In this document: positions 3,001-9,000 of the stretch, piece by piece | Layout of the letters: every line of letters starts with the position of its first letter | Numbering within the stretch: position 1 is the stretch's first letter | Assembly: GCF_055900595.2 (NCBI RefSeq) | Contig: NZ_CM148325.1 | Length of the DNA stretch: 64,000 nt | Direction: 5' to 3' (one strand) | Position numbers: made by a program

Positions 3001-6000
3001 TACCCATTGTAGGCCTGATAAGACGCGTCAAGCGTCGCATCAGGCATGGTGCGCCGATTACCGGATGCGGCGTGAACGCCTTATCCGACTACCAATCCGG
3101 TACCCATTGTAGGCCTGATAAGACGCGTCAAGCGTCGCATCAGGCATGGTGCGCCGATTACCGGATGCGGCGTGAACGCCTTATCCGACTACCAATCCGG
3201 TACCCATTGTAGGCCTGATAAGACGCGTCAAGCGTCGCATCAGGCATGGTGCGCCATATGCTGGATGCTCCCATCACGACAGCGAAATACAGGTCCCCGC
3301 TTCGCCCGCCAGCGTCTCTTCAATCCGCGATAACGCCCCAATCCACGCAGGTTTACCACGGCTTCTGACATAGCCACTCACCGCCGTTACCTTCGGTCCC
3401 ATCGCCCCATCGGCTTTGGCAAATGGCGCTAACTCATCCGGTGTGGCATGGCGAATGGCACGTTGCTGCGGCGTTCCCCAGTTTTCATATACCGCGTCAG
3501 CATCGGTGAGGATCACCAGTCCATCGGCATTAATCTGCTCGGCAAGCAACGCCGCGGCGAGATCTTTATCAATCACAGCTTCACTCCCTGCTCCGTCATC
3601 CGTCACCGGAACACCGCCGCCGCCACTGCAAATCACCACATGCCCCTCTTTGAGCAACAACTCGATGGCTTCACTGTCGAGAATTTTACGCGGTTGCGGA
3701 GATGCCACCACCCGGCGTAAATATTTGCCATCACGCTTCATTTGCCAGCCGTAAGTCGTTTCCAGTGCCTCTTGTTCTTCTGGCTGATAAACCGGGCCGA
3801 TAAACTTCTCTGGCTGCAAAAACGCCGGATCATCAGGCGAAACTTCAATGCGCGTCAGCACCGTCGTGACAGGCGGCATCTGCGGCTGTGCGCTCAAGCT
3901 CTGCGCCAGCATATAGCCAATCATCCCCTGGCTTTCCGCCACCAGCACATCCAGCGGATACGGTTCTACCTCTTTCCACGCCAGATTCTGTAACGCCAGC
4001 AGCCCCACCTGTGGCCCGTTGCCGTGAACAATCGCCAGCCGATAAGAACGGGCCAGGCGCGCCAGTGCGGGTACAGCACTGGCAATATTGCGATATTGAT
4101 TTTCTGCCGTCAGCGCCTCACCGCGCTGGAGTAAGGCATTGCCCCCAAGAGCTACAACCAGTGTTTTCATGGTGTTCCTTGTAATAATTGTTGACCAAGC
4201 CAGAACCCCAGCAGCGTATCTGCCCCTGACGTATGCCCCAGCGCCAGCAGCGAATCAATCGCCACAGCGGTACGTTTCGGGCAACTCAGAGCATGAACAA
4301 AGTGCAGGAGTGGCGAGGCGAAATATCCTTGCGCGGCATAACGTAAATAATTAACGCTCACCGCCGTGGTAACGAGTTGAAGATTGTCGGAACAGGCAAA
4401 AAACGGGCGACCGGAGCGCGCATCTAAAGCGCTATAATACCAGGCTGCCAGCAGCATTCCGCTCAACGTGTCATCATGACTCGGCGTTAATCCGGGGCCT
4501 TTACCCAGCCAGTGCCGCCAGTCGGTCTTAACGCCATTGAGCGCGGCCTGAAAACAGTGGCGAAACTGGCGTAATTCAGCAGGCAGCGGATCGCCTGCCG
4601 CCAACGCCAGCGGCCCGAAAAGCCCGGTTTCCTCCGCGCGTTGCATCCATGCCGCTGCAAGCGGTTGAGGATGCGCAGGCGGCGTAATACGCAGCAAACA
4701 ATAACGCTGTGGCTGTTTAACCGTGAAACGCCCGAGGCGAATCCCTTGAGCCACAACCTGTGGTCGTTCATTGCCGCATAATCCACCGCATAACGCATCG
4801 AATTGTGCGCGGCGAAGCACCCATCCTCCGGGACCGAAACCACTACCCTGACGATGCAGCGTTAACAATTCACCGCTTTCCGTCATCAGGTTAATCGCCC
4901 GCCGCCACACGCCCGCTAACCGCCAGGACTGGCGATAATTCGGTGCGCTACGGCTGGCAAGCAGAGGAAGGATGATCGTCATTGCGCGTTCCTCAACCAA
5001 TCCCCATGCTTTCAGCCAGAGCTTCCAGCGCCTGTTCAAAGCACGCCAGCGGTGCCCGCACAGTGCCTGCACCAATCTGCCCGATCCCCGCCTCTTTATG
5101 GGCGATACCCGTATTGATGAGTGGTGTAATGCCGGTTTCTACCACGCGACGAATATCCAGCCCCAGACACGCGCCCTGGAAATCCCAGCCAGGGATCTGC
5201 AACTGCATATTGCGCTCAAGGAAGATTTCTGCCATCTCTTCAGATACTGCTCTGGCTGCTTCCATACCACCCGCACCGACAAAGCGTGTTACGCCAGGGG
5301 CGGCGATCATTGCCGCACCACCGATACCAAAGGTTTCGGTAATCGCGCTATCGCCCATATCCGGGTTCGCCTGCTCCTGCGAGAAGCCGGTGAAAAACAG
5401 ACCTTGCGGAGTGTTAACTGGCGCAGTAAACCAGCGCTCGCCCAGCCCACTTACCCGAATCCCGAACATATTGCCGTTGCGGGTCATAGCCGTGACGATG
5501 CTGCCCGCGCGGATCATCGCGCCTGCATCCATCGCCGCCTTGCAATAGGCCATCGCGAGGTTGAGGAAGAACTGATCGGTCACGCTGAGGAAATCCATTA
5601 CTTCCGCGATGTGCTGTTTATTGTGATCGAGGCGGGCAATTTGCGGTGCCAGCGCGCGCATCAACAGTGCTGAGGATGCAATGTTGCGCTGATGGAACTC
5701 ATCGCCCATCGTAATGCCCTGTGCCATCATCGCGGTGAGATCGATACCGCGCTCCATGCGCCCCAGCGCCGCGCTTAATACTGGCATTAACACATCGCGC
5801 ATCCAGCGATGGCGAGTCAGGACATCTTCGCCGTAAGCGCCAAAACGCATCACTTTACCGATACCTTCGTTGAGGTTGCAGTACGCCCGGTTGCCGTCGG
5901 TCACGTTCTCGACCACCAGCATCGGCATACTGGCAGAAGTAATGCCACCCATTGGCCCGACGGCATTCACATGGTGACAAGGAATGAAGTTCACTTCCCC

Positions 6001-9000
6001 CTGCTCCAGCATCGCCAGCGCCTGCGCTTCATCTTTCGCCCAACCTTCGAACAGACATGCGCCCACGCACGCCCCTTTCATGGGGCCGGTCATCTCCTGC
6101 CAGCGCATTGGCGGCCCGGCGTGAAGCAGTGTTTTGCCCGGGTGTAGTTCGCTGATAAGTGAAGAAGCCGGTTGCACATCCAGCCAGTGTGGACGAGCGC
6201 GACGAATTTGTTCGATAACCGCAGCATTGGCTTGCGCCACTGATGTAAACATGGGAACCCCTTATTGCAAACGTTCTAATAAACGAGCCAGTTTTTTATT
6301 GCCGCCGGCGACTGGTGACCATTGGTAATGCACAACCGGTTTGCTGGCGCTTTGTAGTTCCAGCGCAAAGCTGCGTAATCCGATGTTAATCACGGCGACG
6401 TTTTCCAGTAATGACGGTGTGTGTTGCTGTGTGGCAGGCGAGAGCGGATGAATTAACGCCGCCGCCAGCAAAGTGGCTTCTGGCAGCGAACTCACTACCG
6501 CGATCCCTGCATCTTCCAGCGTGGCGATTTGCTGCGAGCGGCATTGCGGGTCACGTTCAGTGCCTGTCACCGTGGCAATGGCATACAGTGGTTGATTGTC
6601 TGATCGCACGGCACAGGCTTTTTGCCAGGCGCTTACCAGCGAGGCGGCAGGATCGGCGGTCGCACCGAAGCCAATCACCACATCAAGCAGCAACACGCGC
6701 ACTTGCGGTTTAGCGCCGAGATCGGCAATTAACAGGTTGCGTAAGGTCGGGTCGATCATCGGATGGGGACGCCCGACGGTGTAAAAATCATCGCCCAGGT
6801 CGAGGATCTGATGTCCGTCGGCGTCCAGCATCATGCCATGTTGATGGGTATCGTCGGCTTCCACGCCAAGGTGTCCGGCAAGTAATCCCGCCGCTTCAGC
6901 AGCCAGCGTACCGCCGGTATACAAACCGCAAATAAATCCGCTGCTGACAGGCGCTATCGCGTTACGTCGCGCAGTGACGCGTGAAAGCAGGCAAGCCAGA
7001 CGCGCGGCCTCATCCAGCGAGGAGGCAAACCAGACATTTTCGTCGCGGGCCACCGCCGGGATATAACCTAAAAACAGCGCCACCGTTGGTTTGCCGGTTG
7101 CTTTCATGGCATTAACAATTTTCAGACGTACAGCTTCGGCAGGCGGTTTTGAAACAAACGCCAGCACTTCGCTTTTCTCGTCTACACTGAGCATTTCCAG
7201 CGCCGTTAGCGCACTGATGCCGCCCACTTCATGGCTGAGGTCGCGCCCGCCAAGACCAATCGCGTGAGTAATTCCCTCACCTGCCAGTGCAATCTGCGAA
7301 CACAGCTCCTGAATCCCGGTACCGGAAGCGCCAATGACGCCAATGTTGCCTTCCGGCATCACGTTAGCAAAAGCCAGCGGCGTGGCGGCAATCATCGATG
7401 TACCGCAGTCCGGCCCCATCACCAGCAAGCCTTTTTCCCGCGCGCGGGTTTTAAGTTGGATTTCATCTTCCAGCGTGACGTTATCGGAGAACATCATCAC
7501 GTTGAGGTTGCGATCCAGCGCCTGATTCGCCAGCTCCGCCGCATACTCGCCAGCCACTGAAATCAGCGCCAGATTGGCATCGGGTAATTTCTGACAGGCA
7601 CTGTCCCAGCGACGCACCAGCGTCAACGCCTGGCTGCTGCCCGTTCCCTGCGCCAGTTGCTTTAGCGCCTCTTCAAGCTGCTGCATAATCGCCTGCGCGA
7701 TCCCCGCATCCGCCGCTTCGCTACGAATTGCCACACAAATATCGTTCGGCGTGGCGTTATTAAAATCGTCATGCCAGAAACCTGTGGTATCTAATAACGC
7801 TTTATTGGCGGGCGTACCCATCATTACGGAAACATCATCAACATTTTCTGATTCGCTGAGTTTTCGTGAAATAATCATTAAACTGACCGAATCCTGAAAA
7901 CACCCTTTTTTAATAAAGGCGTGGATCATAACAACTCCTTAAAAATTGCACCCATGGCAATTGCACGAGCAGTGTTAATGTGGCGATTACGGTATCGATG
8001 GATGGTGACAAATAAGGTGATGAATATCACACGGAGATTATTAGCAAAAGAATTCAAATAACCGCCAGACTATTACACGTTATTTTTTAACAAGCGTGGT
8101 TATTTTAAATAATCAGGTTAAAAACACGAGGATTATCAAATAAATTCTAACTATATTTTTTTGCCTGTCTGGATCACATAATCCAGATATTTTCCCTGTA
8201 TGTTAATTGCAGTCATGCTTCACACCGTCGTTAAAAAGGAAGACAGATGAAAATCAGTCGGGAAACACTCCACCAGCTAATCGAGAATAAACTCTGCCAG
8301 GCTGGGTTAAAACGTGAGCACGCTGCAACCGTGGCTGAAGTATTGGTTTACGCCGATGCCAGAGGGATCCACTCTCATGGCGCGGTGCGCGTTGAATACT
8401 ACGCAGAGCGCATATCAAAAGGCGGCACCAACCGCGAACCAGAGTTTCGTCTTGAAGAAACCGGACCGTGCTCGGCAATTTTACATGCTGACAATGCCGC
8501 CGGACAGGTCGCGGCAAAAATGGGTATGGAACATGCCATCAAAACTGCCCAGCAAAATGGCGTTGCGGTGGTCGGTATCAGCCGGATGGGTCACAGCGGC
8601 GCAATCTCTTATTTTGTGCAGCAGGCAGCCCGCGCCGGATTGATTGGCATTTCGATGTGCCAGTCCGATCCAATGGTGGTGCCGTTTGGCGGCGCGGAAA
8701 TTTACTACGGCACTAACCCACTGGCCTTTGCCGCGCCGGGAGAAGGCGACGAGATTCTTACTTTTGATATGGCGACTACCGTACAGGCATGGGGAAAAGT
8801 GCTCGACGCCCGCTCGCGCAATATGTCTATCCCGAATACCTGGGCGGTCGATAAAAACGGTGCACCAACAACCGATCCATTTGCAGTTAACGCTCTGCTC
8901 CCCGCCGCTGGGCCGAAAGGGTATGGCCTGATGATGATGATTGACGTCCTCTCAGGCGTCTTACTCGGCTTACCGTTCGGGCGACAGGTTAGTTCGATGT

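Follow-up and report, generated by a model that had tools for sequence, protein, structure and literature searches.

An intact ylbE (allG) in a divergent Escherichia coli lineage: an ordinary allele of a species-wide gene, and a K-12 pseudogene inherited from outdated database entries

The protein encoded by ylbE has been characterised in Escherichia coli K-12 MG1655, where FdrA, YlbE and YlbF (AllFGH) make up an oxamate carbamoyltransferase (Kim & Kim, 2024, PMC11326118). AllF, AllG and AllH of K-12 are all needed for the reaction of oxalurate and phosphate to oxamate and carbamoyl phosphate, deletion of allG in MG1655 abolishes the production of oxamate, and the purified AllF-AllG-AllH is active as an enzyme, with AllG present as a full-length protein of 46 kDa (PMC11326118). 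According to published work, the three genes share a transcript with allK, which encodes carbamate kinase, and allantoin induces the allF operon anaerobically via AllS and ArcA, both of which bind the K-12 allD-allF region (PMC12535856). A single structure has been solved for the DUF1116/AllG family, that of a distant orthologue from Enterococcus (PDB 3CLQ, 421 aa), deposited as an "Uncharacterized protein", a molecule name that gives no function.

A different picture of the gene is found in older K-12 records. The RefSeq record of W3110 (NC_007779.1) flags ylbE as "frameshifted" with 1259 nt, and papers based on NC_000913.2 list ylbE among the pseudogenes. The frameshifted gene of these records (W3110 NC_007779.1, and MG1655 U00096.2 / NC_000913.2 with the old b0519 fragment annotation) corresponds in both identity and location to the one described here. 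The current MG1655 reference, NC_000913.3, annotates ylbE (b4572, YP_009029994.1) as an intact CDS of 1260 nt and 419 aa.

The stretch under study, hereafter the window, comprises 64,000 nucleotides of contig NZ_CM148325.1 (assembly GCF_055900595.2). Its ylbE begins with ATG and runs for 419 codons on the minus strand, with no internal stop in the ORF listing, as the first-pass annotation had stated; the span 4167-6252 given there holds two genes, ylbF and ylbE. The features of the locus are as follows.

3274-4170, minus strand: ybcF (allK), 298 aa, catabolic carbamate kinase, at the end of the operon (NCBIfam, Pfam).
4167-4982, minus strand: ylbF (allH), 271 aa, AllH subunit of oxamate carbamoyltransferase (Pfam, length in K-12 and RefSeq).
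4993-6252, minus strand: ylbE (allG), 419 aa, intact, AllG subunit of oxamate carbamoyltransferase (ORF, Pfam, MG1655 alignment).
5997-6001, minus strand: run of five G (G5) within ylbE, gene nt 252-256 (sequence read).
6262-7929, minus strand: fdrA (allF), 555 aa, large subunit of oxamate carbamoyltransferase (ORF, Pfam, NCBIfam).
7930-8246, no strand: 317 bp between the divergent genes allD and allF, with the promoter of the allF operon.

We conclude that 4993-6252 is almost certainly an ordinary functional allele of ylbE/allG, that its intactness is a property of the species as a whole, and that the K-12 pseudogene is a matter of legacy records. An open frame of 419 codons, alignable over its whole length with a known protein, lies well outside what chance would produce, and the annotation of a near-identical genome gives the gene the same name. 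Its surroundings agree with this reading: allG sits between allF (fdrA) and allH (ylbF), followed by allK, and allDCE adjoin. Nine base pairs separate the fdrA stop (6262) from the ylbE start (6252), ylbF starts exactly 10 bp (4983-4992) after the stop of ylbE, confirming the gap first reported, and the ylbF stop and ybcF start share 4 bp (ATGA), with a Shine-Dalgarno-like motif ahead of each start (AAGGGG, GAGGAA, AAGGAA). The start of ylbF was placed at the ATG at 4982, giving the 816-nt form of the RefSeq annotations of K-12 and of the near-identical genome; a mechanical ORF list extends it to a TTG at 5075. The four genes thus form a tightly packed and very probably functional operon, much as had been proposed; the order written at that time, ybcF-ylbF-ylbE-fdrA, needs to be turned around, as all four lie on the minus strand and are transcribed in the order fdrA, ylbE, ylbF, ybcF.

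Family assignments support the identity of each member, all Pfam and NCBIfam matches being far over their cut-offs. YlbE covers the Pfam profile PF06545 "AllG" (formerly DUF1116) in full, from position 1 to position 215 of 215, and scores 326.4 bits where the cut-off is 27, thereby passing the Pfam gathering score for membership of the AllG family. FdrA contains the succinyl-CoA-synthetase-alpha-like CoA_binding and Ligase_CoA domains (PF02629 and PF00549) and matches the NCBIfam model NF004760 "FdrA" with 1032 bits over positions 1-555, YlbF matches Pfam PF11392 "AllH" with 101 bits, and YbcF matches the NCBIfam carbamate kinase equivalog NF006926 with 620 bits as well as the Pfam AA_kinase family. 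When the two proteins AllG and AllH were scanned against Pfam with E-values up to 10 allowed, only the AllG and AllH families came up and no link to a CoA-ligase or transcarbamylase fold, and NCBIfam has no matching model for either protein. The Enterococcus protein of 3CLQ aligns to residues 2-414 of the window YlbE (E = 4e-111), which places both in one family; to judge from this alignment, they very probably share the same fold. It is the near-identity to the characterised MG1655 protein that settles the identity and function of AllG.

We traced the history of the K-12 allele through the EcoCyc note on the change from U00096.2 to U00096.3, two resequencing papers, and an alignment of W3110 with NC_000913.3. 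Over the 4,653 nt of the operon W3110 differs from MG1655 NC_000913.3 at two positions, both within ylbE: G114A, and one G missing from the G5 run at nt 252-256. With four G (G4) in the run, the W3110 frame stops after codon 86, and removing one G in silico from the MG1655 run yields the same truncated product. The legacy K-12 records thus carry G4 at this site together with A at nt 114, whereas G5 is found in the window and in MG1655 NC_000913.3 alike, and the window lacks the G4 at nt 252-255 that defines the legacy pseudogene. Another MG1655 assembly and strain ER1709 likewise have the longer run. Differences between MG1655 stocks were reportedly described by Freddolino et al. in 2012. Reads mapped to NC_000913.2 give "547,694 A>G" and "547,831 +G" in the ylbE pseudogene (PMC5460176; PMC3045373), and the extra G was found every time that K-12 stocks were resequenced independently (PMC3045373, PMC5460176). 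The K-12 ylbE "pseudogene" therefore goes back to old G4 sequence records and is shared neither by present-day K-12 references nor by laboratory stocks that have been resequenced; the frameshift that the first-pass annotation gave for K-12 is absent from NC_000913.3. The pairwise alignment to K-12 ylbE, chosen beforehand as the refuting test, is ungapped, with the K-12 gene intact as well, which refutes the proposed contrast with K-12.

It could be argued that the G5 run is a slippage-prone hot spot at which ylbE is switched off in some lineages, so that the frameshift of the W3110 type would be biological and not a sequencing error. The frameshift does fall within a homopolymer, a classic substrate for slippage, and among the matches listed (5,417 matching genomes) G4 is carried exactly by four records, W3110 and strains CIT, LIM and CAR. 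However, five G are short for a contingency tract, and all four records are of the K-12 type. The matches in CIT, LIM and CAR begin at 547802 or 547803, compared with 547802 in W3110, and the record for one of the three is 4,639,673 in length, which suggests that these assemblies were guided by the old reference. No exact G4 match outside K-12 appears among the matches listed, although the query was a K-12 stretch and a G4 allele with divergent flanks would escape it; the 65-nt K-12 stretch with the G5 run has an exact match in 3,815 genomes. In an evenly spaced sample, no length change was seen in any of the 59 full-length records, and the consistent recovery of the extra G on resequencing likewise argues against a biological origin, leaving this explanation very improbable.

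The wider survey points the same way as the preferred reading of an ordinary, intact gene. Of the 5,426 complete E. coli genomes, 5,417 have ylbE over at least 80% of the gene, and it aligned over exactly 1260 nt in 59 of the 60 evenly sampled records, including the K-12 derivatives C3026, DH5a and J53; an intact ylbE is the species-wide norm in E. coli. The lineage of the window is itself rare, as only 8 of the 5,426 complete genomes are at least 99% identical to it. The near-identical genome, Z0117EC0005, shows 13 mismatches to the window over 1-46132; these, together with a repeat-length difference of ~2.7 kb inside a giant gene, rule out that the two are identical throughout, and coordinates past 46 kb were taken from the ORFs of the window itself.

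The ylbE genes of the window and of MG1655 are 95.5% identical, with 57 substitutions and no indels, and the proteins agree at 413 of 419 residues with no gaps (98.6%), so that the window AllG is a full-length, colinear orthologue of the protein characterised from MG1655 genomic DNA. Start, stop, length, neighbours and intergenic spacing are all shared with K-12, as are gene order and ribosome-binding motifs. Seven of the nucleotide changes are non-synonymous and alter six codons (N37H, E38P, I81M, D211N, Y344F, S355G), while 50 are synonymous; the resulting dN/dS of 0.038 (dS 0.19) indicates purifying selection. The partner genes are similarly conserved: fdrA/allF shows 96.6% nucleotide identity, 12 amino acid differences and a dN/dS of 0.085, ylbF/allH 96.7%, six differences and 0.090 at an equal length of 816 nt, and YbcF is one residue longer at its C-terminus than the K-12 protein. 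The adjacent changes N37H and E38P, in a rare lineage, might be taken to mean that the gene, though open, is decaying or has changed its function; yet the strong excess of synonymous changes, the unchanged length, the intact partner genes and the complete match to the AllG domain all stand against this. In 3CLQ the residues aligned to positions 37 and 38 also differ and adjoin a one-residue gap, marking these positions as a variable spot, and we regard decay or altered function as less probable still than slippage. Equally doubtful is a scenario that combines the two, in which the G5 run would be a recurrent on/off site, oxamate carbamoyltransferase would truly have been lost through slippage in W3110 and others, and the divergent allele of the window (N37H/E38P and others) might be altered as well; if such an on/off site were true, the oxamate branch of allantoin breakdown would be a variable trait. 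The least credible proposal, that an intact ylbE sets the window strain apart from a frameshifted K-12 and could serve as a typing marker, draws on the W3110 record and the NC_000913.2-based pseudogene lists but is contradicted by the current MG1655 reference, by the full-length or longer-run sequences of C3026, DH5a, J53, the second MG1655 assembly and ER1709, by the ratio of four G4 records among the matches listed to 3,815 for G5, and by the allG-dependent phenotype and full-length 46-kDa AllG of MG1655 itself.

Returning to the reading of an ordinary functional allele, the identity of 98.6% and the low dN/dS predict that the window's AllG is active in oxamate carbamoyltransferase. In the allFGHK operon (fdrA-ylbE-ylbF-ybcF) allG is the middle gene and would supply one of the three proteins, AllF, AllG and AllH, that jointly constitute oxamate carbamoyltransferase (EC 2.1.3.5, also called oxamic transcarbamylase). 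The enzyme cleaves oxalurate, with phosphate as the second substrate, to give oxamate and carbamoyl phosphate; from the latter and ADP the carbamate kinase AllK then generates ATP, NH3 and CO2. These steps are the last branch of the anaerobic use of allantoin as a nitrogen source. The allele is predicted to be regulated by AllS and ArcA as in K-12, and the near-identical genome has allS along with the other allantoin genes of the cluster. The allD-allF region measures 317 bp, compared with 316 bp in K-12. The parts adjoining both genes are identical; the middle has scattered substitutions (~25 positions off K-12) and one 1-bp indel, a point against the prediction. A consensus scan of 2800-8300 for promoters and terminators gave no more sites than chance and is neutral with regard to the operon; its two weak sigma-70-like matches on the minus strand (8206-8178 and 8171-8144) do not exceed the number expected by chance.

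An intact ylbE is already known and the function of the enzyme is published, and the finding of an intact frame is in itself of little importance; its lesson is one of annotation. The calls of a "ylbE pseudogene" and the recurrent "ylbE mutations" of resequencing studies stem from an old reference that is one G short. Contrary to the use suggested for it at first, an intact ylbE separates no strains, because virtually all complete E. coli genomes have it, and typing of the window strain should make use of its SNP divergence, given that only 8 complete genomes reach 99% identity. The product of the gene, AllG, is a functioning part of an unusual transcarbamylase that has three subunits and was identified only recently.

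The ylbE gene of the window is uninterrupted, and the span 4167-6252 under which the first-pass annotation had reported it holds two genes, ylbE and ylbF. The four genes of the putative operon and the profiles matched by their products are as follows.

fdrA, stop at 6262, minus strand: CoA_binding and Ligase_CoA (Pfam), FdrA (NCBIfam)
4993..6252, minus strand: ylbE, 419 aa, ATG start and open frame in the ORF list; AllG, PF06545 (Pfam), scoring 326 bits (cut-off 27)
4167-4982, minus strand: ylbF, 271 aa from the ATG used in both RefSeq and K-12; AllH, PF11392 (Pfam)
ybcF, stop at 3274, minus strand: AA_kinase (Pfam), carbamate kinase (NCBIfam)

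All four are full length and, as they share the minus strand, are transcribed in the order fdrA, ylbE, ylbF, ybcF. The ORF list thus bears out an intact ylbE of 419 aa, and the junctions are as had been described: 9 bp separate the fdrA stop (6262) from the ylbE start (6252), the stop of ylbE is followed by a 10-bp gap (4983-4992) before ylbF starts, and ylbF and ybcF share 4 bp (ATGA), with a Shine-Dalgarno-like motif ahead of each start. The surroundings are those of the allantoin cluster, which in Z0117EC0005, the closest complete genome and a nearly identical one, runs purK, ybcF, ylbF, ylbE, fdrA, allD, allC, allE, glxK, ybbY, allB and continues to allS. The ylbE product is placed in AllG by its profile match, its colinear orthology and its operon context alike. 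The sole solved relative, PDB 3CLQ, aligns over residues 2-414; its residues opposite positions 37-38, where the window and K-12 differ, differ too, beside a one-residue gap.

The intact frame had been set against a K-12 ylbE taken to be a frameshifted pseudogene, and this contrast is outdated. In the current MG1655 reference annotation (NC_000913.3) ylbE (b4572, YP_009029994.1) is an uninterrupted 1260-nt CDS, and the two proteins share 413/419 identities with no gaps (BLASTP); at the DNA level 57 substitutions and no indels separate them (95.48% identity), altering six codons. Given the uninterrupted CDS and the gap-free alignment, K-12 ylbE is intact as well.

The pseudogene can be traced to an older form of the K-12 sequence. 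In the W3110 RefSeq record NC_007779.1 ylbE is still labelled 'frameshifted', with 1259 nt (locus L003, 4582-5840), and across the whole aligned 4.65-kb operon this record differs from the current MG1655 version at exactly two places, both in ylbE: gene nt 114 is A instead of G, and the run of five Gs at nt 252-256 is one G short, so that the frame ends after codon 86. Taking one G out of MG1655 ylbE in silico truncates the product in the same way. Both differences have also been reported in papers relative to the older MG1655 record NC_000913.2, one of which (PMC5460176) gives '547,694 A>G' and '547,831 +G' for the ylbE pseudogene and remarks that together they create an ORF; according to EcoCyc, U00096.3 superseded U00096.2 in 2013 because the latter was not an exact match to any MG1655 isolate. 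We infer that the four-G run is a sequencing error and not a mutation in one stock. This run, the defining feature of the legacy allele, was looked for in the window ylbE and is absent. A 64-nt probe carrying it matched exactly in four records among the matches listed (W3110, CIT, LIM and CAR), the summary count being five records at 99% or above, four of them named. The legacy allele, four Gs together with A114, persists in W3110 and in the K-12-type assemblies CAR, LIM and CIT (NZ_CP026026-28). In these three the match begins at 547802 or 547803, exactly or almost where it does in W3110, which suggests that the run was inherited from the old reference through guided assembly.

The intact state is near-universal. 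The fdrA-ybcF region (3500-7500, megablast) was found in 5,423 of 5,426 complete E. coli genomes, the matching regions being annotated always as ybcF, ylbF, ylbE and fdrA; 5,417/5,426 carried ylbE over at least 80% of its length, and the five-G probe was exact in 3,815 genomes. Among 60 evenly spaced records, 59 gave one unbroken alignment of exactly 1260 nt, the K-12 derivatives C3026, DH5a and J53 included. The one short match belongs to the clinical genome AR_0085 (NZ_CP029741.1; locus L004, 3774-5439), in which fdrA has lost its 3' end and ylbE its first ~820 nt through a deletion that fuses 5' fdrA to 3' ylbE; the annotation treats the two as partial pseudogenes, and the genome is a rare case of the enzyme being lost in nature. 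Being near-universal, intactness of ylbE has no value for the strain typing for which it had been proposed.

Three segments of the window (1-2840, 3500-7500 and 24000-32000) were compared with the same 5,426 genomes. Only the same eight (seven human, one dog) reached at least 99% identity in all three, the highest value among the remainder being, according to segment, ~98.6% or 97.3-97.8%; the window therefore stems from an E. coli lineage that is rare and divergent.

Several further features were noted.

2860-3255: four tandem 100-bp REP/BIME units (98% matches) with three Rfam naRNA4 matches, filling the spacer from the purK stop (2840) to the ybcF stop (3274)
2864-3112, plus strand: 82-aa ORF, wholly within the REP/BIME repeat and not a gene
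11356-11422, minus strand: sRNA STnc480 (Rfam, 87 bits), directly downstream of allE
29949-30026: an extra single naRNA4/REP element (Rfam)
33845-34861, plus strand: 338-aa YadA-anchor autotransporter adhesin, in the ybbJ-cueR interval
35617-36840, plus strand: 407-aa ORF in the same interval, without a Pfam match and hypothetical in the nearest genome
37245-38420: HlyD
38417-40579: ABC permease/ATPase
40583-59560, minus strand: uninterrupted 6,325-aa ORF, an Ig-like domain protein by the nearest-genome annotation
59669-61024: TolC-like OEP

The purK-ybcF spacer measures 433 bp, as against 194 bp (about two units) in K-12. The HlyD, ABC and TolC-like genes flank the giant ORF as type I secretion genes, and the whole block (37245-61024) adjoins cueR; in Z0117EC0005 the giant gene is ~2.7 kb longer in repeats and annotated 'frameshifted; internal stop'.

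The ylbE of the window is thus allG, a known gene, in its ordinary and already known state. Single deletion of allF (fdrA), allG or allH (ylbF) stops the conversion of allantoin to oxamate in K-12 MG1655 (Kim and Kim, 2024; PMC11326118), and in the triple mutant all three genes are needed for full complementation; the enzyme's KM for carbamoyl phosphate is 1.3 mM and that for oxamate 36.9 mM, and in sequence it shows no resemblance to the aspartate or ornithine transcarbamylase family (PMC11326118). AllK (YbcF) is the catabolic carbamate kinase (PMC9843812). Allantoin induces allFGHK ~38-fold under anaerobiosis, requiring AllS and ArcA, which bind in the allD-allF intergenic region (PMC12535856). 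In the window this promoter region is alignable with that of K-12, identical beside both genes and with substitutions in its middle. The low dN/dS values against K-12 (Nei-Gojobori; 0.038 for allG, 0.085 for allF, 0.090 for allH) indicate that the three genes are under strong purifying selection. While the K-12 contrast once attached to it falls away, the reading of fdrA-ylbE-ylbF-ybcF as a functional operon is reasonable and, judged from its sequence, the allG allele carried here would be functional.
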